Positions 29,118-44,850 of a stretch of 64,000 bases of DNA are shown here, in pieces. Origin of the DNA: a bacterium (GTDB lineage Bacteria > Zhuqueibacterota > Zhuqueibacteria > Residuimicrobiales > Krinioviventaceae); NCBI GenBank assembly GCA_963693055.1, contig OY843751.1:5440001-5504000 (forward strand), in the 5' to 3' direction. The translations under genes were made by a program, and so were the position numbers. Numbering within the stretch: position 1 is the first letter of the stretch; the number at the start of each line of letters is the position of its first letter. The notes under the pieces were generated by a model. It searched no databases. It was not told the DNA's origin and was given only the letters and a program-made list of their open reading frames with translations.

Positions 29118-30515
29118 ATGAAAAAAATAGCTATTTTACTGATTATTATTGCTACCGGCTTTCTGAATTGTACCTCAACATCTCAGGAAAATTTATCACA
29201 GCATATTCAGCTTTGTATTCAAAATCCGCACTATTTTGCATACAAGGGAAAACCCGTTTTACTACTAGGGGGATCAGACGAAGACAATTTATTCAACAAT
29301 CCATACCTGATGGAAGAAAACCTTGAAACATTGTACGAGGTGGGCGGAAATTACATCCGGTGTACAATGTCAAGTAGGGATAACGGTAATGTATGGCCAT
29401 TTGCCCAAAAACAAAATGGATTGTATGACCTTGATCAGTATAACCAAGAGTACTGGAACCGTTTTGAAAACTGTCTTGTCAGAGCCAGAGACTATGATAT
29501 CATTGTACAGGTCGAAATCTGGGCAACTTTTGATTTTTATAGAGATTACTGGACAGTCAATCCATTTAATCCTGCAAACAATATTAATTATAGCATAGAT
29601 GACACACAATTAAAATCAACCTGGCCGCATCATCCGGCAAGCAAGCCGCAACCTTTTTTCTTTTCTGTTCCTGAACAGAATAATGATTCTTTGCTAATCA
29701 AATACCAGCGCAAATTTGTAGATAAACTTTTGAGCATCAGTCTGAATTATGATAACGTACTGTATTGTATGGATAATGAAACACGGGCGCCTGCTGAATG
29801 GGCCTGGTATTGGGCTGATTATATTCAAAAAAAAGCCTATCAATCTGGTGTTCCGGTTATGCTCACAGAAATGTGGGACGCTCATGATCTTCACAACAAA
29901 GAACACCGTCGCACCTATGACCATCTTGAACTTTTTGCCTATTTTGACATCTCTCAAAACAACTGGCAGGAAGGCCAAACACATTACGAAAATGCCCTCT
30001 GGGTTAGAAACTTGCTTCAAGACCACGGAGGCGTTCGCCCCCTTACCAATATCAAAGTATATCATCGTCGTCATAACAACATGCCAAATACTCCCTCAGT
30101 TGGTGTTGATCGCTGGTGGCAAAATATCTTTGCAGGATGCGCAAGCACCCGTTTTCATCGCCCTACCGGAGGCACAGGTTTAAATCCGCTTTCTCAACAA
30201 AATATTAGAGCGGCACGTACTTTTACAGATGCTTTTAATATTTTTGCATGCCAACCCCTTCCCGATCTGCTAAGTGACACGGATCCAAATGAAGCGTACT
30301 GCCTGGCTGATCCTGGTAATACATATGCTTTATATTTTCCAACCGGTGGTAATGTTACCCTCAAGCTTGAAGAAACCTCAAAACAATACAAAATAACCTG
30401 GTTTGATCCGGTTACTCTTAAATTTTATAAAGCAAAAACTATTACCGGCAATCCCGCACAAATTCAATCACCCAATATGGACCAGATATGGCTGGCACTG
30501 ATCAATATCCAGTAG
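29118..30515 (+). CDS. Lipoprotein with a glycoside-hydrolase-like domain and putative collagen-binding C-terminal domain
   Basis: Lipobox FLNC; GGNYIR; MDNE; C-terminal 'YALYFPTGG...WFDP'. Confidence 0.65.
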   Translation: MKKIAILLIIIATGFLNCTSTSQENLSQHIQLCIQNPHYFAYKGKPVLLLGGSDEDNLFNNPYLMEENLETLYEVGGNYIRCTMSSRDNGNVWPFAQKQNGLYDLDQYNQEYWNRFENCLVRARDYDIIVQVEIWATFDFYRDYWTVNPFNPANNINYSIDDTQLKSTWPHHPASKPQPFFFSVPEQNNDSLLIKYQRKFVDKLLSISLNYDNVLYCMDNETRAPAEWAWYWADYIQKKAYQSGVPVMLTEMWDAHDLHNKEHRRTYDHLELFAYFDISQNNWQEGQTHYENALWVRNLLQDHGGVRPLTNIKVYHRRHNNMPNTPSVGVDRWWQNIFAGCASTRFHRPTGGTGLNPLSQQNIRAARTFTDAFNIFACQPLPDLLSDTDPNEAYCLADPGNTYALYFPTGGNVTLKLEETSKQYKITWFDPVTLKFYKAKTITGNPAQIQSPNMDQIWLALINIQ

Positions 30516-31495
30516 ATTTACCTTACCCGGACCAGATTATTGACATGCTTGTGCCGGACAACCAGGGAAAAGAGCGTCTTGACAAATTTCTTTGCGATCA
30601 TCTCCCCTCTGTTACACGAGCCAAGATCAAAAAACTGATCGATGTTGCTGGTGTTACGGTGAACGATGTTCCTGTTAAAGCAGGTTACAGTATTAGACCG
30701 GGAGATAAAATACGTATTCGTTTTCCAAGACCACCCAAAACCGAACTGGAGCCCGAAGATATTCCTCTTGATATCATTTATGAAGATGACCACCTTCTTG
30801 TAGTAAATAAACCGCCGGGCATGGTTGTGCATCCCGCTTATGGAAACCGGACCGGAACACTGGTAAACGCATTACTTGCCCATTGCGGCCAGCTTTCAGA
30901 TGTAGGCGGAGAAACCCGTCCGGGACTGGTACATAGGTTGGACAAAGATACATCCGGCTTGTTGGTCGTAGCTAAAAACGATGTCACCCATGTAGAATTG
31001 GCAAGACAATTGTCCTCACGCAAAATGGACAGAGAATACCGGGCAATTATCTGGCGGCACCCCAAAGCAAAATCCGGTACAATTGAAGCCGCTTTAGGCC
31101 GTAACCCCAAAGACAGAACCCTAATGCGCATCGATCCGGAAGGCAAGCACGCAATTACCCACTATGAAGTGCTTGAAAGGCATTCGCTAACCAGCTATAT
31201 AAAACTCAATCTGGAAACCGGGCGCACACATCAAATCAGAGTTCACATGACTTCACTGGGGCACCCCATTTTTTCGGATGCCGCTTATGGGGGCAGAGGC
31301 AAACAGCTAGCCGGAATGAATAACGAACGAACAAAGTTTATAAACGGCCTGTTTAAAGACTTTAAACGACAAATGCTGCACGCAAAAAGTTTGGCATTTG
31401 TTCATCCGGCAACCCACGAACTCATGAGATTCGACTCTCCCATTCCTCAGGATATGCAAGATTTGTTGGAACAACTCAGGTCTACACATGTGTAA
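30488..31495 (+). CDS. rluD: RluA-family 23S rRNA pseudouridine synthase with an S4 domain
   Basis: RLDKFL; NKPPGMVVHP; VHRLDKDTSG; LETGRTHQIRVH; exact start uncertain. Confidence 0.88.
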   Translation: MAGTDQYPVDLPYPDQIIDMLVPDNQGKERLDKFLCDHLPSVTRAKIKKLIDVAGVTVNDVPVKAGYSIRPGDKIRIRFPRPPKTELEPEDIPLDIIYEDDHLLVVNKPPGMVVHPAYGNRTGTLVNALLAHCGQLSDVGGETRPGLVHRLDKDTSGLLVVAKNDVTHVELARQLSSRKMDREYRAIIWRHPKAKSGTIEAALGRNPKDRTLMRIDPEGKHAITHYEVLERHSLTSYIKLNLETGRTHQIRVHMTSLGHPIFSDAAYGGRGKQLAGMNNERTKFINGLFKDFKRQMLHAKSLAFVHPATHELMRFDSPIPQDMQDLLEQLRSTHV

Positions 31496-31658
31496 ATATC
31501 CTACAGTTGTATATTTTTCACATGTGTAAAAAACCTACACTTGGAATTTTCTTTAACGATCCACTCTGAGCGAGATAGCCGCAAATCAATCATTTACAAA
31601 CACTTACGAAAAATACAATCTCCATTCATTTTATCCTTTCTTCTGGCATACCTATTGC
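31491..31658 (+). promoter_or_regulatory. Sigma-54 promoter with an IHF site and three upstream activator boxes
   Basis: TGT-N9-ACA at 31491, 31508 and 31525; AATCAA-tcat-TTA at 31584-31596; TGGCAT-accta-TTGC at 31644-31658. Confidence 0.75.
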
Positions 31659-31696
31659 CTGTACCCTATTGAAGAAAGATAAAAGAGAGGTTAATC

Positions 31697-33439
31697 ATGG
31701 AAAATACTAAAGCGAAACAAATGCTGCTCTTTTTGTGGATTACAGCCGCAGTTCTGATCCTGCTAAGTATGGTATTATGGGGTCAGTCTCATGCAGCCGT
31801 GACTGAAGAATTTACAATCAATTCAGATAATGATATTTCCGTCAGCGAGATGGAATCCAAATACCTGGGCCCTGACAGTTCTCCGTTGCGCTTCAATGGT
31901 GACACCACTATTGAAGAAGACCAGTTGATCAGACGAGATGTTGTCGTTGTAGATGGCACAATCCAAATCAAAGGCGAAATTGAAGGCAATGTACTTTGTA
32001 TATATGGTGATATTGAATTGGATGAAAACGCCCGCGTTTTGGGTAATGTTGTCAGCATCGAAGGAATAATTTGGACCAATGAAGGTTCCTTTGTTGAAGG
32101 TGATATCATTGAAACCAGCGGTTCAAAGAGCAATAAACGAATTGAAAGATCTGACAAATACGATGAGAATGAGAATGACAATGACTCGGACAGAGCAAAG
32201 CGCAGATCAAAAAGAAAATCAAACATTTCTGTTCGATATCGTGATTACGAATATGATGATGAGCCCATGTGGTTTGAATACAGCAGTGTTGACGGATTAA
32301 CTCTTGGTATGAAATTCCCCGAACCAGGCTGGTGGCAGTATCGTGACCATGACTTTGCGATACTCGGCAAAATAGGGTACTCTTTTGCCCGCAAGGAATG
32401 GCAATACAAAGTAGGTCTTGAAAAATGGTTCCTGCAAGATAATCGTATGGCATTTGGCGGAGAATATCATGATCTTACAGCATCAGAAGATAACTGGATT
32501 ATTTCTGATACCGAAAACACCCTGGCGTCTCTTTTATTCAAAGAAGATTTTCGTGATCATTATTTAAAAGAAGGTTTTTCAGTCTATATGAAAAATTACC
32601 TTACTCATTATTTAAATTTCAAAATTGCTTATAATGAAGACCGTTTTAAAAATCTTCAAACCCGTGCTGATTGGGCAGTATTCGGTGGAGACGATAAAAA
32701 GTTCAGACCCAATGCGGCCGCGCTTCCTCAAGGTCTGGTAGATCAGGAATTGGCCAAACCGGCAGGATTTCAAAATCCATATTTGGATTTGACCAGCTAT
32801 ACTCTTGATGCGGAATTTGATACACGCGACAGTTACAAACACCCGCAACGAGGTTGGTACGTACAAGCCTTTGCTGAAAGAGCAACTTATACTCAGCTTG
32901 AAAACAGTGAATTTGACCGATATGTACTTGATATCAGACGTTATCAGCCGCTGGGTTGGGATGAGAATCTCAACATTCGTTTACGTGGCGGCACTACCAA
33001 GGGTGATGTGCCCCCTATGTACTGGTTCAATCTTGGCGGACTCTCAACCTTGCGTGGTTATGAATTTAAAGAATTTACCGGCGATCGTATGGTTTTGGGA
33101 AATATAGAGTACCGAATGCGCACAAGTGATGATGACTGGTTTATATTTGACACCTTTGACATCGTATTGTTTGTAGATTCCGGTCTGGCATGGTTTGCAG
33201 ACAGTGAAACCCCGAACCGGGTAAACGCTTGGAATTATGATAATGAAACAGAAAATCCTGATGCAACAAACAGTGACCCACAAGACACGTTCGATTCTTT
33301 GACCTGGAATTCGCTGAAAACCAATGTAGGCGTTGCCCTTGCAACTGAAGATGATGAATTCAGAATTAATTTTGCACGTAGAACAGATGTCGGTGGAAGA
33401 GATTTTGTTGTAACATTTCGCATCAATCACCCGTTTTAA
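31697..33439 (+). CDS. Omp85/BamA-TamA-family barrel with an N-terminal bactofilin-like beta-helix
   Basis: Repeated 'GDVV/GNVL/GDII' turns; LGGLSTLRGY lid motif; 'LFVDSG.AW'; terminal Phe. Confidence 0.75.
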   Translation: MENTKAKQMLLFLWITAAVLILLSMVLWGQSHAAVTEEFTINSDNDISVSEMESKYLGPDSSPLRFNGDTTIEEDQLIRRDVVVVDGTIQIKGEIEGNVLCIYGDIELDENARVLGNVVSIEGIIWTNEGSFVEGDIIETSGSKSNKRIERSDKYDENENDNDSDRAKRRSKRKSNISVRYRDYEYDDEPMWFEYSSVDGLTLGMKFPEPGWWQYRDHDFAILGKIGYSFARKEWQYKVGLEKWFLQDNRMAFGGEYHDLTASEDNWIISDTENTLASLLFKEDFRDHYLKEGFSVYMKNYLTHYLNFKIAYNEDRFKNLQTRADWAVFGGDDKKFRPNAAALPQGLVDQELAKPAGFQNPYLDLTSYTLDAEFDTRDSYKHPQRGWYVQAFAERATYTQLENSEFDRYVLDIRRYQPLGWDENLNIRLRGGTTKGDVPPMYWFNLGGLSTLRGYEFKEFTGDRMVLGNIEYRMRTSDDDWFIFDTFDIVLFVDSGLAWFADSETPNRVNAWNYDNETENPDATNSDPQDTFDSLTWNSLKTNVGVALATEDDEFRINFARRTDVGGRDFVVTFRINHPF

Positions 33440-33466
33440 ATAGTATCACACAACTCCAAGCCCGTA

Positions 33467-33497
33467 CATGAAGAAGCGGAAACTCCGCTTCTTCATG
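33467..33497. other. Perfect 14-bp intercistronic hairpin
   Basis: CATGAAGAAGCGGA-aac-TCCGCTTCTTCATG; no U-tract. Confidence 0.6.
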
Positions 33498-33530
33498 CAT
33501 TATATAAAAATGCAGGGAGGTTCCAAACCA

Positions 33531-34379
33531 ATGAAAAATTTATTGCTACTATTATTCTTGATTTTATTCCTGACGAATAATACCTTCGCCTATAATGATA
33601 TGACTCTGGAAGAGCATTTCACAATTTCAGAAAAGCTTGATATTGATATCAATATTGACGCGGGAGAGATCAAAGTCAGACAAAATGAAATTGATGACCA
33701 ATGCCATGTCCGCATTCAATACAATACAGATCGCGCAGAAGCTGATATCCGTTTTAATGATAAAAAAAACGCTCTTGACGTTATTGTAGATTATGATTCA
33801 TGGAAATCCGTTGGTAAAGATCATGAAGACCACAACAGGGGTCCTGAAGTATTGATTGAACTCCCTTCCAGTGCAATTCTGGATATCAATGCAAAGCTCA
33901 AAGCCGGTGAATTTGATTTAAGACTTGGCGGTCTTAAAATACGCAGTTTCCAATTCACCAATTGGGCGGGAGAAGCAGATATAAATTTTGTCTCACCCAA
34001 CCAGATTGAAATGGAAACCCTGGATATTAATTTCAAAGTAGGCGAGCTCAATATCCGCAACTTGGGGAACGCGCGTTTTAAAGAAGCCGATATCAACAGC
34101 GGCATTGGAGAATTAAACATTGATTTTAGAGGAGATCTGCTCGAAAGGGCCATGGCACGCATTGATCTGGATATTGGTGAAACACAAATCACCGTCCCGG
34201 AAGAGGTTGGCTCTAAATTACGCGTATCAAAATTTCTGTTTTTAGCAGAGATCAGCTATCCCCATTGGTTTGAAAAAAGAGGCAAATATTATTATTCAGA
34301 AAACTATTCGGATAGTGAAAAAAATTTGTATCTTATAATATCGGCAGGAATTGGTGAACTATCTATAGATGTTAAATAG
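33531..34379 (+). CDS. Secreted toast-rack (LiaF/LiaG, DUF2154/DUF4097-like) beta-solenoid protein
   Basis: GGAGG RBS; signal peptide; repeated 'xGExxIxx' units (AGEIKV, AGEFDL, AGEADI, VGELNI, IGELNI, IGETQI, IGELSI). Confidence 0.65.
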   Translation: MKNLLLLLFLILFLTNNTFAYNDMTLEEHFTISEKLDIDINIDAGEIKVRQNEIDDQCHVRIQYNTDRAEADIRFNDKKNALDVIVDYDSWKSVGKDHEDHNRGPEVLIELPSSAILDINAKLKAGEFDLRLGGLKIRSFQFTNWAGEADINFVSPNQIEMETLDINFKVGELNIRNLGNARFKEADINSGIGELNIDFRGDLLERAMARIDLDIGETQITVPEEVGSKLRVSKFLFLAEISYPHWFEKRGKYYYSENYSDSEKNLYLIISAGIGELSIDVK

Positions 34380-34384
34380 TAGAC

Positions 34385-36109
34385 ATGATTATGAAATTTC
34401 TTAAAATTCTTTTACTCCTTTTTATCTCTGCTTCGGTCTTGTTTTCTAGTGAATCAACAAAACCAGCCGTAAACATTGACAATACAGGTCTGAAAAACTG
34501 GGCGGTTAAAGCATTCACAATTGACCATGATATGTATTTAACCATCACAGCTACCGGTCAGGCTGTAAATGATCAATGGCAAGCAAAAGCATGGATATTA
34601 AATGCTCAAACCCGACGCCCCGTCTGGGAAATGAACTTTGATAATTCTCACAAAATAAACGACAATGGTCGTAGAAGATTCCTGGGAGAACAATTATTCA
34701 CAGCAGGTTCGTATGAAGTCTATTTTGGCACAGATGCATATGTACAGCAAAAAGCCAAAGGATGGACGGGAATTGTAGACGACTTGTTTGACAATCTTGA
34801 TTATTATGAAAGAGACAAACGCTATTGGGGAATAACTGTAGAATCACAGGATGATGAACAAAACGCATTTCATCCTGTACAGATAAATGAAACAAAGGGC
34901 ATCAATCCGGATATCCACATGGCCCCAATTGGAGATAACGCTAAAGAAGAAACCGGCTTTTTGCTGGAACAGGAAACCACTATTCAGATATATATGGTGG
35001 GCGAAGGGACCCGTAAAAACGATCAAATGTATGATTACGGATGGATCACAAATTCCGATACTCATCAAAGAGTATGGCAGGCCCAGGTCAAAGAGACGCT
35101 ATATGGGGGTGGAGCAGAAAAAAACCGCATTGTAGATGAAACCTTTCTTCTTCCGGCAGGGCATTATACACTGCATTACATTACAGATGACTCTCATTCT
35201 CCCGACATGTTTAATCAAATGCCCCCCTATGATCCTCTAAGCTGGGGGATATCTGTATGGTCAAGTGATGGTGATATTATTCTGAATGAAAAGCAGGCCA
35301 TTACCTCTATATCATCACTTGCACCTATTGTCAGTTTTACCAAAATGCAGAATAATGAATATAATTGTGAGGGTTTTGAAATCCGTGAACCTATGGATAT
35401 TTACATCCAGTGTGTGGGTGAGTACTCTAGAATTTTTAATACTTTTGCAGATTATGGTTGGATCACAAACGCACATACACGTGAACGTATCTGGACCATG
35501 ACACTGGACAATTCTTTTCATGCAGGTGGCAGCAGAAAAAACCGCAAAACCCAGGACCATATACACCTGGAACCGGGGGCCTATACCGTTCACTATATAA
35601 CAGATGATAGCCATGCTTTTAATTCCTGGAACAGCAGCAAACCATCAGAACCGGAGCAATGGGGTATAACCATAACTCCCGAAGACAATTCAGCAAACGT
35701 AAAAATATATCCCTATTCAGAAAAGGACGATCCGGCTATACTGGCATCAATAAAACAAGTAAATAAAAATGAACACAGACGAAAATCCTTTGACCTTGAT
35801 CAGGGTGCAAATATACGAATTTACGCACTGGGAGAAGGTGAAAAGGATGAAATGTACGATTATGGTTGGATAGAAAACCAGGACGGTGACTGGGTATGGG
35901 AAATGGAATATGACGACACATTTCATGCAGGTGGTGCCAGAAAGAATAGATTGTTTAATGATATAATTTATTTACCTGCCGGCAAATATACCGTTCACTA
36001 TGAATCGGATGACAGTCATAATTATAATGATTGGAACGCAGACCCACCAGATGATGCAATGAGTTGGGGAATTACTTTGATCAATACTGAATGGATAGAA
36101 AATCAATAA
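34385..36109 (+). CDS. Secreted protein with four ~135-aa internal repeats
   Basis: DYGWI..VW..GG..KNR..L.AG.YT.HY..DDSH..WGI three times plus a degenerate first copy. Confidence 0.85.
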   Translation: MIMKFLKILLLLFISASVLFSSESTKPAVNIDNTGLKNWAVKAFTIDHDMYLTITATGQAVNDQWQAKAWILNAQTRRPVWEMNFDNSHKINDNGRRRFLGEQLFTAGSYEVYFGTDAYVQQKAKGWTGIVDDLFDNLDYYERDKRYWGITVESQDDEQNAFHPVQINETKGINPDIHMAPIGDNAKEETGFLLEQETTIQIYMVGEGTRKNDQMYDYGWITNSDTHQRVWQAQVKETLYGGGAEKNRIVDETFLLPAGHYTLHYITDDSHSPDMFNQMPPYDPLSWGISVWSSDGDIILNEKQAITSISSLAPIVSFTKMQNNEYNCEGFEIREPMDIYIQCVGEYSRIFNTFADYGWITNAHTRERIWTMTLDNSFHAGGSRKNRKTQDHIHLEPGAYTVHYITDDSHAFNSWNSSKPSEPEQWGITITPEDNSANVKIYPYSEKDDPAILASIKQVNKNEHRRKSFDLDQGANIRIYALGEGEKDEMYDYGWIENQDGDWVWEMEYDDTFHAGGARKNRLFNDIIYLPAGKYTVHYESDDSHNYNDWNADPPDDAMSWGITLINTEWIENQ

Positions 36110-36136
36110 AAAAGGCGGCAAATGCCGCCTTTTTTA
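36107..36136. terminator. Bidirectional intrinsic terminator
   Basis: TAAAAAAGGCGGCA-aa-TGCCGCCTTTTTTA between convergent genes. Confidence 0.85.
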
Positions 36137-36493
36137 TTTTTGCGCTTTTGCTTTACAGCACTCGCTTTGACTTTCTTTGCAACAATCCTTATTGCATGTC
36201 TTTACTGCAGGACACTGGTTATCAACAACTTTGAAACCAGTTTTATTAACAGCCTGAGTAATTTTTGCTGCATCTGCTTTGTCGGTCTCATATGTAACTT
36301 TGGCAGAATTACTGGCTAAAACCACATCAGCCTCTGTAACGCCATCCACTTTCTCTATTGCAGCTTTAACAGCGTGAACACAACCATTACAGGTCATACC
36401 ATCAATTTTCAAATCAACGGTTTCTTTCTCGCCTGCTAAAACAGCAACTACTGCAATAATAGAAAAAAGAATTATAAATTTTGTCATCTTCAT
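36134..36493 (-). CDS. Exported heavy-metal-associated (CopZ/MerP-like) protein with a Cys-rich tail
   Basis: Signal peptide; GMTCNGC; tail C..C..CC..CC. Confidence 0.85.
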   Translation of the reverse strand: MKMTKFIILFSIIAVVAVLAGEKETVDLKIDGMTCNGCVHAVKAAIEKVDGVTEADVVLASNSAKVTYETDKADAAKITQAVNKTGFKVVDNQCPAVKTCNKDCCKESQSECCKAKAQK

Positions 36494-36626: not shown

Positions 36627-37796
36627 TTGAAAATAATATTAACATGCCTTACTCTGCTGATGGTATATTGGATGTATGAATACCTTATGTTGAGTATAAA
36701 AAGAAGAAAAATACCAAACAGAATATTGGTAACCGGTACCCGGGGTAAATCTTCTGTAACCCGGCTTGTAGCCGCAGGTCTAAATGCCGCAGGCATAAAA
36801 ACAATAGCCAAGGTTACCGGTAGTGCTGCCAGAATAATAATGCCGGATGGAACAGAACACACCATCCAAAGAAATGGCATGCCAACTATCCTTGAACAGA
36901 AAAAGATCATATCCATTGCAGTTGAAAATAAAGCACAATGCCTCGTTGTTGAAGGCATGGCAATACGCCCGCAAATGATCAAAACCGAATCATTTTCCAT
37001 CATTAAACCCAATTCAATCATTGTTTGCAGAATTGGTCCCGACCATTTGGATATAACCGCGGAAACCATCCCCGGACTGGTTAAAGCCTATTCAAAAACC
37101 ATTACAGAAAACAGTATGGTTTTCACATTACCAGAAAACCGGGAGCTGTTTGCCAAACGTTGTTTTTATATGGACGCCGAGCTTTACGATCCTGTTGATA
37201 TGGAATCAAATGCTTTAGAAATCCCACTTGATCGTTTCTCATATATAGAACACAAAGAAAATATTGAACTCGCACTTCAGGTATGCAATTACCTTGGAGT
37301 TGATTCCGGAACTGCGCTTTCGGGCATGCTTCGTGCCAATCCCGATCCTGGTGCCCTTGCACTATATAAATGCGATATTGACAATTCAACGATAACATTC
37401 ATACAGGCATTTGCAGCTAACGACACCCATGCACTGTCTATCATTCAGGAAAGTCTAAAATCACATCTGGAGGGCAATGTAATCATCATAATCAATACAC
37501 GCAAAGACAGGCCCTTTAGAAGCCGTGAAATGCTTAAATATGTACAAACGCATTCTCACGTCAAGGAATGCATACTGACCGGAAATGGACATTTGGAACC
37601 CTTGCGTCAGGAACTTGAAAAATCTATCAAAACCATAATACTTGAAGATACCGAATCTATTATAGCATTTATTTCTAAAAATACATTACAGCCTGCTACT
37701 ATTCTGGGAATAGGAAACCTATATGGAGCGGGTCAGGAACTTTGTTCCTATTTTAAAAACAAATGCACAACATCGTCAAACAATGTCGTGCATTAA
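36627..37796 (+). CDS. pgsB: Poly-gamma-glutamate synthase PgsB/CapB
   Basis: VTGTRGKSSVTRL; AKVTG; ILEQ; DHLD; PDPGAL; FAAND; AGAGG RBS with TTG start. Confidence 0.85.
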   Translation: MKIILTCLTLLMVYWMYEYLMLSIKRRKIPNRILVTGTRGKSSVTRLVAAGLNAAGIKTIAKVTGSAARIIMPDGTEHTIQRNGMPTILEQKKIISIAVENKAQCLVVEGMAIRPQMIKTESFSIIKPNSIIVCRIGPDHLDITAETIPGLVKAYSKTITENSMVFTLPENRELFAKRCFYMDAELYDPVDMESNALEIPLDRFSYIEHKENIELALQVCNYLGVDSGTALSGMLRANPDPGALALYKCDIDNSTITFIQAFAANDTHALSIIQESLKSHLEGNVIIIINTRKDRPFRSREMLKYVQTHSHVKECILTGNGHLEPLRQELEKSIKTIILEDTESIIAFISKNTLQPATILGIGNLYGAGQELCSYFKNKCTTSSNNVVH

Positions 37797-42659: not shown

Positions 42660-43067
42660 TTATTTTACACCTTTGGCTTTGAAAAATTCCGAATAGGCCA
42701 TATCAGTTTTCAAAATATGATTGGCCAACCACTCTTTCAGGAATTTACTCAAATCAATTACCATCAATGTACTGCCATTTTCAAATTTTGCTTTATATTC
42801 CATTACTTTTTGTTTCAAGTCATTATGCTCTTTTTGATGTGTGAAAATTGCAGAATAACCAAAACGGGTCATCAATTCTTCTTCGGTATCAAAATGGATG
42901 ATCGTATAATTGATCAATTCCTCAAATATCTCTCCCAACACCGAATTAGCTTTGCCGGCACTCATGGCTTCATAAAAGTCATTAACCAAACTAACTAATT
43001 TTTGATGTTGCTTGTCAATTTTATCTATTCCAACACAATAAGAATCTTTCCATTCAAAATAAGCCAT
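42660..43067 (-). CDS. Bacteriohemerythrin
   Basis: IDKQH; HFDTEE; HQKEH; WLANHILKTD. Confidence 0.95.
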   Translation of the reverse strand: MAYFEWKDSYCVGIDKIDKQHQKLVSLVNDFYEAMSAGKANSVLGEIFEELINYTIIHFDTEEELMTRFGYSAIFTHQKEHNDLKQKVMEYKAKFENGSTLMVIDLSKFLKEWLANHILKTDMAYSEFFKAKGVK

Positions 43068-43178
43068 TCTCTCCTACGGCCTAAAAATATCAAGAAAAAA
43101 ATATATCCTTTTATCATATAAGCCAATTCAATTTAATTTATTATAGAATCTGAACAAAAAATTCAAACGTTTAATAAC

Positions 43179-43589
43179 TCAGGAAATAATCTTGTTGTCT
43201 CTTAAAAATTTTACATACTGCATATCCGTTTGCAAAATATGATTTGCCAACCACTCTTTAAGATATTTGCTCAATTCAATTACAACGCTTGAACTACCTG
43301 CAAGATATTTCTCCTGACTGGATTTAATCTTGCTGGTAAAGCCATCATGATAGGCTTTATGTGCTGTAAAAGTGGGATAATTATACTTTTCCAGCAGCTT
43401 TTCTTCGGTAGAAAAATGGGTGATCGTATAATCCAATAGATTTTGCAAAATCGGTCCCATTACTTCTTTACTTTTTCCGGCACTCATTGTTTCATACAAC
43501 TGATTTATATATTCAACCAGTTTTTTATGCTGTGTATCAATTGTAGGTATAGTGGTGCTATAGCTGTCTTTCCATTCAAAAAAAGCCAT
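43179..43589 (-). CDS. Bacteriohemerythrin
   Basis: IDTQH; HFSTEE; HKAYH; WLANHILQTD; AGGAG RBS. Confidence 0.95.
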   Translation of the reverse strand: MAFFEWKDSYSTTIPTIDTQHKKLVEYINQLYETMSAGKSKEVMGPILQNLLDYTITHFSTEEKLLEKYNYPTFTAHKAYHDGFTSKIKSSQEKYLAGSSSVVIELSKYLKEWLANHILQTDMQYVKFLRDNKIIS

Positions 43590-43617
43590 TTCATAACTCC
43601 TTATTTTTGATTTTTTA

Positions 43618-44850
43618 TTAACCAAAATCATCAAACAAGATATTTTCGGGCTCTACACCAAGATCATCAAGCATTTTGAAAACAGCATTAATCATCATTG
43701 GAGGACCACATAAATAATATTCGCAATCTTCAGGTGCCTTGTGTTTGCCAAGATATTCATCAAGAATAACCTGATGTATAAAACCTACATATCCTTCCCA
43801 GTTGTCTTCTGGCAAAGGTTCAGACAGTGCTACATGCCACTTGAAATTATCATGATTGGCCTGCAAAGTATCAAAATCTTCCTGATAGAAAATTTCTCGT
43901 TTACTTCTTGCGCCATACCAGAATGTCATTTTTCGTTTTGAATCCAAACGTTTTAACTGATCAAAAATATGAGACCGCATGGGTGCCATACCTGCACCAC
44001 CACCAATAAAAACCATTTCATTATCGGTTTCGCGTGCAAAAAATTCTCCATAAGGACCGGATATTGTTACCGTGTCTCCCGGTTTTAAATTAAAAATAAA
44101 TGAAGACATCTGGCCCGGCGGTACACTTGGCTTGTTTGGAGGAGGCGAAGCAATACGTACATTCAGCATAATGATGCCCTTCTCCTCGGGATAACTTGCC
44201 ATAGAATAAGCTCGCAAAACGGGCTCATTCACTTTTGAGACAAATTGCCACATGTTGTACTTGTCCCAATCGTCTCTATATTCTTCTTCAATATCAAAAT
44301 CTTTATAACTTACAGTATGTGGTGGTGCTTCAATTTGAATATAACCACCCGCTCTAAAGTTAACATCTTCACCTTGGGGCAGTTCAAGCACCAGCTCTTT
44401 GATAAAAGTAGCAACATTATGGTTCGATTTTACTTTACATTCCCACTTTTTAATTTCAAATACTTCTGCAGGTACTTCCAACTTCATATCACCTTTAACA
44501 GGAAGCTGGCAGCTCAGGCGATATCCTTCACGCACCTGTCCACGGGTCAATTTTGAACGCTCTGTAGCAAGCACATCACCACCACCTTCTGTGACGATGA
44601 TTTTACACTCACCACAAGTACCACCTCCACCGCAAGCGGATGGAATAAAAATACTCTGATCTGCCAGAGAGTTCAAAAGCTTGTCACCCATTGGGACTTC
44701 AAAAGTATGGTCCGGATCATCATTGATAACAATTTTGGCTTTGCCGCTTTGAACAAGCTTTGACTTGGCCAGTAAAATAATTAATACAAGGACCAGTACA
44801 ATCAGCGTGAACATGAACACGCCGAGTAATATTAAACTAAATCCCGACAT
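43618..44850 (-). CDS. nqrF: Na+-NQR subunit F
   Basis: [12 protein letters not shown]; RAYSMA; [12 protein letters not shown]; CGPP; LFDDFG. Confidence 0.97.

Follow-up and report, generated by a model that had tools for sequence, protein, structure and literature searches.

An apparently undescribed operon of candidate division KSB1 encoding a POTRA-less Omp85-type barrel and a toast-rack protein, with predicted sigma-54 or extracytoplasmic-function-type promoters

The locus and its genes

The window analysed here, a stretch of 64,000 nucleotides (assembly GCA_963693055.1, contig OY843751.1, positions 5,440,001 to 5,504,000), belongs to a genome of candidate division KSB1 that consists of one contig of 6.54 Mb and is 100% complete. 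Its subject is an operon of three plus-strand genes, encoding an Omp85-type beta-barrel (gene 1), a toast-rack protein (gene 2) and a protein made of four repeats (gene 3), which is real, conserved and apparently undescribed. The open reading frames (ORFs) span 31697-33439 (580 aa), 33468-34379 and 34385-36109 (574 aa); the likeliest start of gene 2 is at 33531, downstream of a GGAGG ribosome site, and yields 282 aa. For genes 1 and 3, the nearest named homologues come from candidate division KSB1. A previous inspection of the letters alone, hereafter the sequence-only reading, had described three exported proteins between a sigma-54 promoter and a strong terminator. The ORFs, the promoter site and the terminator were found as placed (Table 1), and all three products are predicted to be exported, judging by eye from their N-terminal hydrophobic segments. 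Coordinates without a prefix refer to the window, G000 denotes this genome, L-numbers denote fetched stretches or loci and P-numbers representative proteins.

The same genome encodes RpoN, 32 matches to sigma-54 activators of which 27 are strong, a canonical BamA elsewhere on the chromosome (508 bits) and 14 Omp85-domain matches in total. PspA (PF04012) was not found in this complete genome, and a control search gave matches in 9 of 14 genomes.

Table 1. Features of the operon and its control region, in window coordinates
Feature	Position	Strand	Basis
Enhancer site 1, TGTGTA-N7-TACA, predicted sigma-54 activator site	31489..31507	+	Conserved dyad
Enhancer site 2, 34 bp after site 1	31523..31541	+	Conserved spacing
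Match to the integration host factor (IHF) consensus, AATCAATCATTTA, between enhancer and promoter	31584..31596	+	Sequence match
Predicted sigma-54 -24/-12 promoter, TGGCATACCTATTGCC	31644..31659	+	Conserved motif, RpoN in genome
Gene 1, POTRA-less barrel of the Omp85 superfamily, 580 aa, with an N-terminal hydrophobic segment of unusual length	31697..33439	+	Pfam, AlphaFold2, fold searches
Bactofilin-like beta-helix of gene 1, residues 64-140, optional	31886..32116	+	AlphaFold2 strands, structure match
Charged linker of gene 1, residues 141-190	32117..32266	+	27/50 residues charged; predicted local distance difference test score (pLDDT) <50 at 143-162
Loop-6 lid motif LRGY, residues 452-455	33050..33061	+	Alignment of 93 homologues
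Strand-13 lid-lock motif FVDSG (FxDxG), residues 492-496	33170..33184	+	Alignment of 93 homologues
Weak internal candidate site of extracytoplasmic function (ECF) type, TGTAAC-N16-CGTT, in the last codons of gene 1	33409..33437	+	Score 14.8
Perfect 14-bp hairpin, intergenic	33467..33497	+	-28.1 kcal/mol, z -5.3
Gene 2, toast-rack protein of the DUF2154/LiaF-C type with a predicted signal peptide, 282 aa	33531..34379	+	Pfam, by-eye signal
Gene 3, four jelly-roll repeats (PPC/CUB-like) without a Pfam family	34385..36109	+	Model, repeat comparison
Bidirectional intrinsic terminator	36105..36138	.	Hairpin with A/T tracts on both sides

The barrel protein and its N-terminal modules

Gene 1 matches the Pfam family Omp85 above its cut-off (E 3e-17). 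The AlphaFold2 model, built from 93 sequences with a mean pLDDT of 85.3, starts with an N-terminal helix, followed by a beta-helix, a charged linker that is disordered and, over residues 191-576, the 16 strands of the barrel; neither Pfam nor the model contains a POTRA domain. BamA ranks first in Foldseek (E 5e-15), and in a wide structural search BamA, Sam50 and TamA reached Z 20-22.5 (BamA 22.5), whereas FhaC and CdiB reached Z 15-16.9 (FhaC 16.9). Among the named families, the BamA model NCBIfam TIGR03303 gave 30 bits against a cut-off of 297, ShlB matched in Pfam below cut-off and DUF5686 matched in part. Pfam gave no match to the DUF5982 motif known from Leptospira, and sequence searches of the PDB returned no relevant match. 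Across 93 homologues the R and G of the LRGY lid are kept in 81 and 88 sequences, and the F, D and G of the strand-13 motif in 89, 92 and 93, respectively. FxDxG is the form found in the insertases BamA and TamA, GxDxG the form of FhaC (PMC4490367). Gene 1 is a member of the Omp85 superfamily but neither BamA, nor TpsB, nor strictly of the noNterm type, and the sequence-only reading of a barrel with an (L)RGY lid that carries a beta-helix and a charged linker in place of POTRA domains was borne out.

Bactofilins polymerise into filaments in the cytoplasm; the beta-helix of gene 1 follows the predicted export signal, precedes the barrel and superimposes on the Thermus bactofilin 6ria (Z 9.3, root-mean-square deviation 2.9, 72 residues aligned). 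Its own Pfam Bactofilin match is weak and under the cut-off (E 0.0099), while relatives pass it; a search of the ESM Atlas with this domain gave only leads below 0.9. The domain is present in 67 of 116 KSB1 loci, 16 of them long forms (the two long-form proteins examined hold three beta-helix modules each), and in 86 of 130 near-complete distant barrel representatives. It is missing from the other 49 KSB1 barrels, some of which are cut at contig ends, so that the bactofilin-like part proposed for the system stands for this locus and is absent from many relatives. In 51 selected relatives, most of which have a long N-terminus, the position in front of the barrel is occupied by bactofilin, POTRA, DUF4252, LamG/HEAT, CBM48 or toast-rack domains, and at L199 a beta-helix is encoded by a stand-alone gene between barrel and gene 2.

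Three further observations concern relatives of these modules. A stand-alone, predicted-exported beta-helix protein related to the N-terminal domain of gene 1 is encoded at L237:3995-4684 (G000:29992-30684), with a moderate ECF-type site (score 13.3). A second POTRA-less relative of the barrel, of 401 aa, adjoins another Omp85 gene at L229:6696-9221 (G000:870695-873223) and has no ECF site upstream. In one family, M1 aminopeptidases of about 980-1020 aa lie inside the operon (L151:7221-10169, L156:728-3673 and L159:7553-10609), one of them with a C-terminal Omp85 match.

Conservation of the barrel and toast-rack pair

Gene 2 was confirmed as the toast-rack protein that had been read from the sequence, with LiaF-like_C and DUF4097 above the Pfam cut-off and a further match to Toast_rack_N. 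Of 151 genomes sampled from the phylum, 137 matched the barrel at E 1e-20, 126 contain gene 2 and 74 gene 3 or its repeat. The best barrel locus was fetched from 116 genomes, weaker paralogue matches being omitted, and downstream linkage was counted in the 102 KSB1 loci with at least 1.2 kb beyond the barrel. Gene 2 lies downstream in 77 of these loci and is the immediate next gene in 63; some toast-rack gene is found in 85. Gene 3 occurs in 28 and the exact order of three genes in 11, so the co-occurrence expected by the sequence-only reading holds for the first two genes and far less often for the triple. The conserved core is barrel plus toast-rack, and both the beta-helix and gene 3 are optional. 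Metagenome loci contain a toast-rack gene in 37 of 61 cases and gene 3 in 21 of 61. A YciC-like membrane protein is encoded in 26 of the 102 loci, and LiaI/LiaF-type genes in 10 of the 116, the locus in this window not being among them.

Barrel and toast-rack also occur in a single polypeptide. In P0416 and its full-length cluster mate P0476, which are Latescibacterota by source name, a whole relative of gene 2 is fused to a barrel of the gene 1 type (E 8e-42), and the fusion is full length in several assemblies. A lipoprotein status of the partner proteins was rejected, a lipobox-like pattern being present in 3 of 80 gene-2 and 0 of 28 gene-3 proteins. In the open literature searched (top-ranked records, with subscription journals and supplements outside its range), neither this operon nor a bactofilin-Omp85 fusion nor an Omp85/toast-rack pairing was described.

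Two additional genes recur in these neighbourhoods. A protein of 210-237 aa without Pfam match or name is encoded among the toast-rack genes of 12 of the 116 loci, in lineages without a sigma-54 site (L170, L180, L191, L200, L202, L204, L206, L216, L217, L219, L221 and L222). An NAD-dependent epimerase/dehydratase gene (356-371 aa) lies 3' of the barrel in 13 of the 102 loci, in long-barrel lineages (L137, L138, L141-L143, L145, L147, L148, L151, L152, L156, L159 and L171).

Two promoter types

A -24/-12 site as such is not above chance in this region (1 match, 0.35 expected, 28 of 100 shuffles). When it was sought with at most one mismatch, the motif was detected upstream of 59 of 105 barrels and of none on the reverse strand, the background in this genome being 61 of 3455 ORFs (1.8%). 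Of these 59 sigma-54-positive promoters, 52 carry a TGT-N9-ACA dyad (3.35 in shuffles), which is also found at variant promoters outside the training set, and the two dyads of a tandem are spaced 32-35 bp apart in 42 of 46 site pairs. At this locus the pair has a score of 20.5, against 6.1 for the runner-up in the genome; a wider sigma-54/enhancer regulon was sought in this genome and not found, this operon having the only strong tandem site. A strict match to the IHF consensus is present in 6 of the 59 promoters, compared with 1.08 in shuffled sequences.

A candidate for the protein that binds the enhancer emerges from other genomes. In 18 of 116 loci a gene for a receiver-AAA-HTH activator stands beside the barrel gene, usually 3' of hflX, and for 13 of 13 such neighbours tested the best match in this genome is the gene at G000:109163-110521, likewise 3' of hflX. 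Where hflX abuts the barrel gene, as in three loci, neither promoter nor enhancer is left. Among the 59 loci with both promoter elements, 56 lie in genomes with a strong activator match. The product scores best against the AtoC and NtrX models, under both cut-offs (for NtrX 419-439 bits against 600), and is a candidate NtrX/AtoC-like activator of the sigma-54 promoter. No kinase gene lies beside it in this genome, where an NtrX would have a linked NtrY. The DUF4390-linked HAMP kinase G000:4387326 was considered as its kinase and rejected, as it is matched at full length in 3 of 151 genomes. From the conserved site, the enhancer, RpoN and the candidate activator, the operon is predicted to be sigma-54-dependent.

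Upstream of genes 2 and 1, and not of other genes, a further motif is enriched, (T)G(A/T/C)AAC-N16/17-CGTA. The core AAC-N16/17-CGTA occurs upstream of gene 2 in 27 of 80 relatives (reverse strand 3), of gene 1 in 23 of 108 (reverse strand 4) and of other genes in 9 of 219 (reverse strand 13). Its two elements match the AAC/CGTA consensus described for sigma-W-type promoters (PMC5758882), and the KSB1 motif is therefore referred to as ECF-type. Of 104 gene 1 promoters, 65 have a sigma-54 site only, 16 an ECF site only, 5 both and 18 neither. Internal ECF sites accompany 31 of 51 operons led by sigma-54 versus 5 of 28 others; many are weak sites within the last codons of gene 1, and the one at 33409-33437 may reflect coding constraint only. 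Sixty-three metagenome loci gave a comparable picture, with sigma-54 plus enhancer in 27, sigma-54 only in 3, ECF only in 15, enhancer only in 1 and neither in 17; none had both promoter types, and the reverse-strand controls gave 0.

The ECF-type promoter extends beyond the phylum. The matrix trained on KSB1 scores at least 14 upstream of 25 of 64 further gene-3/barrel loci (reverse strand 0), among them 9 of 11 barrel-linked loci from Calditrichota, Ignavibacteria and Chlorobi, whereas sigma-54 plus enhancer is seen in only 1 of 76 loci of this further set. Gene 3 retains its ECF promoter where it stands alone. In a FastTree tree of 96 KSB1 and 9 other barrels, from which cut loci were omitted and for which looser promoter thresholds were used, all nine non-KSB1 barrels are ECF-type and sigma-54 appears solely inside KSB1; the 15 changes of promoter label give a distribution and not an order of events. 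Sigma-54 control, which the sequence-only reading had put forward for the system as a whole, is confined to part of KSB1, and the two promoter types tend to replace one another from lineage to lineage.

The highest-scoring ECF sites of this genome lie upstream of genes for a PspC/LiaF pair, a LiaF-type protein, a DUF4097 toast-rack, DUF2884 and DUF4870 proteins and exported peptidases. The search for the cognate sigma factor among the 22 ECF genes of the genome gave none with a strong site of its own (best score 10.2). As a lead to it, an ECF sigma factor gene comes immediately 3' of gene 3 at L062:7950-11446, L083:7989-10566 and L109:6541-10008, with an ECF-type site upstream of gene 3 and, in two of the three, a zf-HC2 anti-sigma gene; the closest relatives of these sigma factors here are G000:5302297 and 5766240. 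At L113 and L114 the two kinds of site are interleaved upstream of the barrel, with AAC just 5' of the -24 GG and CGTA just 3' of the -12 GC.

Gene 3 and its repeat

The four repeats noticed in gene 3 are homologous, with pairwise E-values from 1e-7 to 3e-33. Neither Pfam nor the PDB contains a sequence match, 2866 homologues were collected, and the ESM Atlas returned unnamed clusters only. The model (pLDDT 91.1) shows four jelly-roll domains. Structurally they come closest to PPC, collagen-binding and CUB domains (Z 7-8.2), with CUB (7.1-7.7) tied with PPC. Repeats 2-4 share an invariant Glu, an Asp 8-10 residues further on and a DxSH motif; repeat 1 has no acidic site. In MASP-1 CUB2, calcium is bound by Glu216, Asp226, Asp263 and Ser265, and the same residues bind a lysine of the ligand (PMC5300068). 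By residue pattern, gene 3 may have a similar calcium site.

In 8 of 9 fetched stretches, a long protein contains the repeat as an insert of one or two copies that retain DxxH and GGxxKN; the five such proteins scanned are Reg_prop/Y_Y_Y histidine kinases or SpoIIE phosphatases. At L321-L328 (e.g. L325:3782-8056) the repeat occurs once or twice in the propeller sensor region of KSB1 hybrid histidine kinases and SpoIIE phosphatases. Its insertion in sensor proteins points to a periplasmic ligand-binding role for gene 3.

Among 80 gene-3 loci across phyla, a barrel lies within 8 kb in 24 and is absent in 54, with 2 uncalled. The order is barrel-gene 3-DUF4097 in Calditrichia and gene 3-barrel in Ignavibacteria and Chlorobi. 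The sequence-only reading had named conservation across the Fibrobacteres-Chlorobi-Bacteroidetes (FCB) group and Acidobacteria as a check: barrel and gene 3 are linked in Calditrichota, Ignavibacteria and Chlorobi loci, while the one Acidobacteriota genome tested has gene 3 and no barrel match at E 1e-20.

Other features and neighbouring genes

The hairpin between genes 1 and 2, noted already in the sequence-only reading, is perfect, and the likeliest gene 2 start, 33531, leaves it intergenic. It was rejected as a conserved RNA element: a strong hairpin lies 3' of gene 1 in 23 of 68 loci, and the sequences are unrelated. No RNA holder is listed for the locus. The terminator behind gene 3 is shared with a convergent HMA-domain gene.

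Upstream, a gene for an RluD-type pseudouridine synthase (30488-31495), whose stop codon overlaps enhancer site 1, is the usual neighbour in several families. Past the terminator lies a Mur-ligase gene (36627-37796, Pfam Mur ligase), which also follows the operon in L112, L132 and L135 and resembles the poly-gamma-glutamate synthase CapB/PgsB. Two small adjoining genes that read by eye like hemerythrins (42660-43634) precede an NqrF-like gene.

A proposed stress-inducible outer-envelope module

We lean, if only slightly, towards reading the operon as an inducible outer-envelope stress module, in which a POTRA-less accessory Omp85 barrel uses the toast-rack protein as a periplasmic, substrate-handling arm encoded in trans. 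This interpretation is favoured by the barrel's fold and motifs, its lack of POTRA domains, the linkage of barrel and toast-rack, their natural fusion and the two conserved promoter types. Envelope damage would activate a sigma-W-like ECF sigma factor, in all nine non-KSB1 loci of the tree and in some KSB1 lineages. In many KSB1 members, this genome included, an NtrX/AtoC-like response regulator would instead bind the tandem TGT-N9-ACA enhancer and open the sigma-54 promoter. The barrel would then be located in the outer membrane beside the housekeeping BamA, and beta-helical surfaces (the bactofilin-like domain, gene 2 and further DUF4097 proteins) might dock on its periplasmic face and present clients. 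The barrel would likely aid the folding, insertion or clearance of damaged envelope proteins. Gene 3 could be an optional periplasmic ligand-binder; calcium and cationic peptides may be its ligands, held at the acidic E/D/DxS site in a CUB-like manner. The envelope-stress role proposed by the sequence-only reading is supported by the ECF-type promoters and by the LiaI/LiaF-type neighbours.

Several observations weigh against this interpretation. The lid-lock motifs are common to all Omp85 proteins and are no proof of insertase activity, and toast-rack domains are regarded as intracellular in section 27 of PMC11237479. No barrel match at E 1e-20 was obtained in 14 of the 151 genomes; ten of these belong to the same taxonomic order as this genome, an order whose genomes all have gene 2. 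A nearby toast-rack gene is lacking in 17 of the 102 loci, the barrel stands largely alone in one family (f9), and the fusion with gene 2 is 1 of 150 representatives. As to control, the internal ECF site of the window is weak, the ECF scan of the genome exceeds the reverse strand about 2.5-fold (27 versus 11 at a score of at least 18), several LiaF-type and toast-rack genes of the genome have no ECF site, and 19 genomes have the activator without both promoter elements above threshold. For gene 3, the fold matches (best Z 8.2) are within the range of a common arrangement, and the likeness to the calcium site is one of residue pattern, not of three-dimensional structure. Finally, the genomes are kin and some metagenome loci duplicate training genomes, so the counts are not independent.

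It is conceivable, though unlikely, that barrel and beta-helical partners form a sensing or tethering scaffold that reports the state of the outer membrane inward and may span the periplasm if gene 1 keeps its long N-terminal helix uncleaved. The N-terminal hydrophobic run of gene 1 (31697-31795), of conserved character, is longer than those of the partner proteins (median 19-24 versus 14-15 residues) and nearer to a transmembrane helix than to a typical signal peptide, but a cleavage motif of the A-x-A type follows the helix in most homologues displayed. The gene-3 repeat in periplasmic propeller regions of kinases and phosphatases, the LiaI/LiaF-type and YciC-like membrane proteins within operons and the proposal of toast-racks as signalling scaffolds (PMC11237479, section 27) are consistent with sensing. 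However, no conserved kinase was found, the sole candidate being the rejected one, and the barrel retains its lid-lock motifs.

Two-partner secretion, in which gene 3 (or gene 2) would be exported by the barrel and serve at the surface as an adhesin or decoy, appears quite unlikely. Three lineages show a linkage of barrel and gene 3, in differing orders, Pfam finds no type IX sorting domain in gene 3, and noNterm Omp85 genes of Leptospira adjoin adhesin-like genes (PMC11358297). Nevertheless, most gene-3 loci have no barrel nearby and 74 of the 102 barrel loci no gene 3; the linkage that exists is accounted for by a shared promoter type; and the barrel, with its FxDxG motif and no POTRA, is closer to BamA and Sam50 than to FhaC and CdiB. 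The dedicated surface display of gene 3 suggested by the sequence-only reading finds little room here, the more so as the repeat also occurs in periplasmic sensor regions.

Very unlikely is the capture of peptides or solutes under a nutrient-type sigma-54 two-component regulator, with the barrel as a gated channel and its partners as binding proteins. The AtoC- and NtrX-like scores of the candidate activator would fit, as would the M1 and S49 peptidases, the fucosidase and the CBM-type domains found in or fused to some loci, yet transporters, TonB systems and catabolic enzymes are not among the regular operon members, the alternative promoter is of the ECF stress type, and NtrX controls envelope genes in Rhodobacter (PMC7240162).

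Mere co-regulation, i.e. one stress regulon clustered on the chromosome whose products do not act as a complex, is hardly plausible given the gene 2-barrel fusion and the frequent immediate adjacency of gene 2, even though membership beyond barrel and toast-rack is loose and gene 3 keeps its ECF promoter when alone; it may still apply to gene 3.

The stress module would have implications beyond this locus. How substrates are delivered to POTRA-less Omp85 proteins, and what these proteins do, is an open question (PMC4104836, PMC11358297), and this barrel family offers a testable answer: its partner would be gene 2, which directly follows the barrel gene in most genomes and forms one protein with it in one lineage. 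Toast-rack domains, intracellular according to PMC11237479, would be placed in the periplasm beside an outer-membrane barrel. The analysis also defines an unnamed repeat family common to a stand-alone exported protein and to sensor kinases, and one of few worked-out regulatory circuits (promoter, enhancer and candidate activator) for the KSB1 phylum. If the module indeed repairs or protects the outer membrane, it would be an envelope-stress system of a kind unseen in model Proteobacteria. Only tentatively, and with more doubt than confidence, we suggest a new class of accessory, stress-inducible Omp85 proteins in which beta-helical proteins, in trans or fused, replace POTRA domains. Such a class would extend the Lia/Psp toast-racks beyond the inner membrane to the FCB outer membrane, use a new family of calcium-dependent, cationic-peptide-binding repeats as a sentinel and have its control rewired between ECF and sigma-54.

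Comparison with known systems

The noNterm Omp85 subfamily, which has been suggested, though not demonstrated, to provide auxiliary foldase or translocase activity under stress, is the closest parallel, since it likewise comprises 16-strand barrels without POTRA alongside BamA (PMC4104836; Leptospira paralogues, PMC11358297). The gene 1 family differs from it in its exchangeable N-terminal modules (one to three bactofilin-like beta-helices, toast-rack, DUF4252 and others), which fall outside the ten architectures in section 10 of PMC4104836, and in its place in a toast-rack operon with defined promoters. By definition noNterm proteins have no domain before the barrel, which excludes gene 1 itself, whereas complete KSB1 relatives without the beta-helix would fit. 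With BamA, TamA and Sam50 gene 1 shares the fold and both lid-lock motifs in the FxDxG form; it differs in lacking POTRA domains, in coexisting with a separate BamA and in having no adjoining TamB or Bam lipoprotein genes. A TpsB two-partner translocase, in contrast, has two POTRA domains, GxDxG and an obligate linked cargo.

Gene 3 resembles calcium-binding CUB and PPC domains in its modelled jelly-roll fold (Z 7-8) and in its E..D(+10)..DxS pattern, like that of MASP-1 CUB2 (PMC5300068). It differs from them in an extra invariant His, in the GGxxKN motif, in the lack of a Pfam or PDB sequence match and in a first repeat without the acidic site.

With the Bacillus sigma-W-type ECF regulon (PMC5758882) the promoters share the AAC/CGTA elements; they differ from it, and from the psp operon, in that two promoter types occur, mostly in different lineages. 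The PspA-free Toastrack/LiaI-LiaF-TM neighbourhoods (PMC11237479), to which the loci described here may be related, combine multiple toast-racks and LiaI/LiaF-type proteins without PspA, under a two-component regulator or sigma factor; LiaI/LiaF-type genes are present in 10 of the 116 KSB1 loci, this one not included. The main text of that source, supplements apart, contains no mention of 'Omp85', 'outer membrane' or 'bactofilin'. The toast-racks described here differ in having predicted signal peptides and an outer-membrane barrel as partner. The link to Lia/Psp loci drawn in the sequence-only reading is supported by the toast-rack genes and, in some relatives, by the LiaI/LiaF-type neighbours, and does not extend to PspA in this genome. 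The control region of the enterobacterial sigma-54 psp operon consists of an enhancer, an IHF site and a -24/-12 promoter, a layout that recurs here with an IHF-like site; the candidate activator in KSB1 is a receiver-AAA-HTH protein, not PspF.

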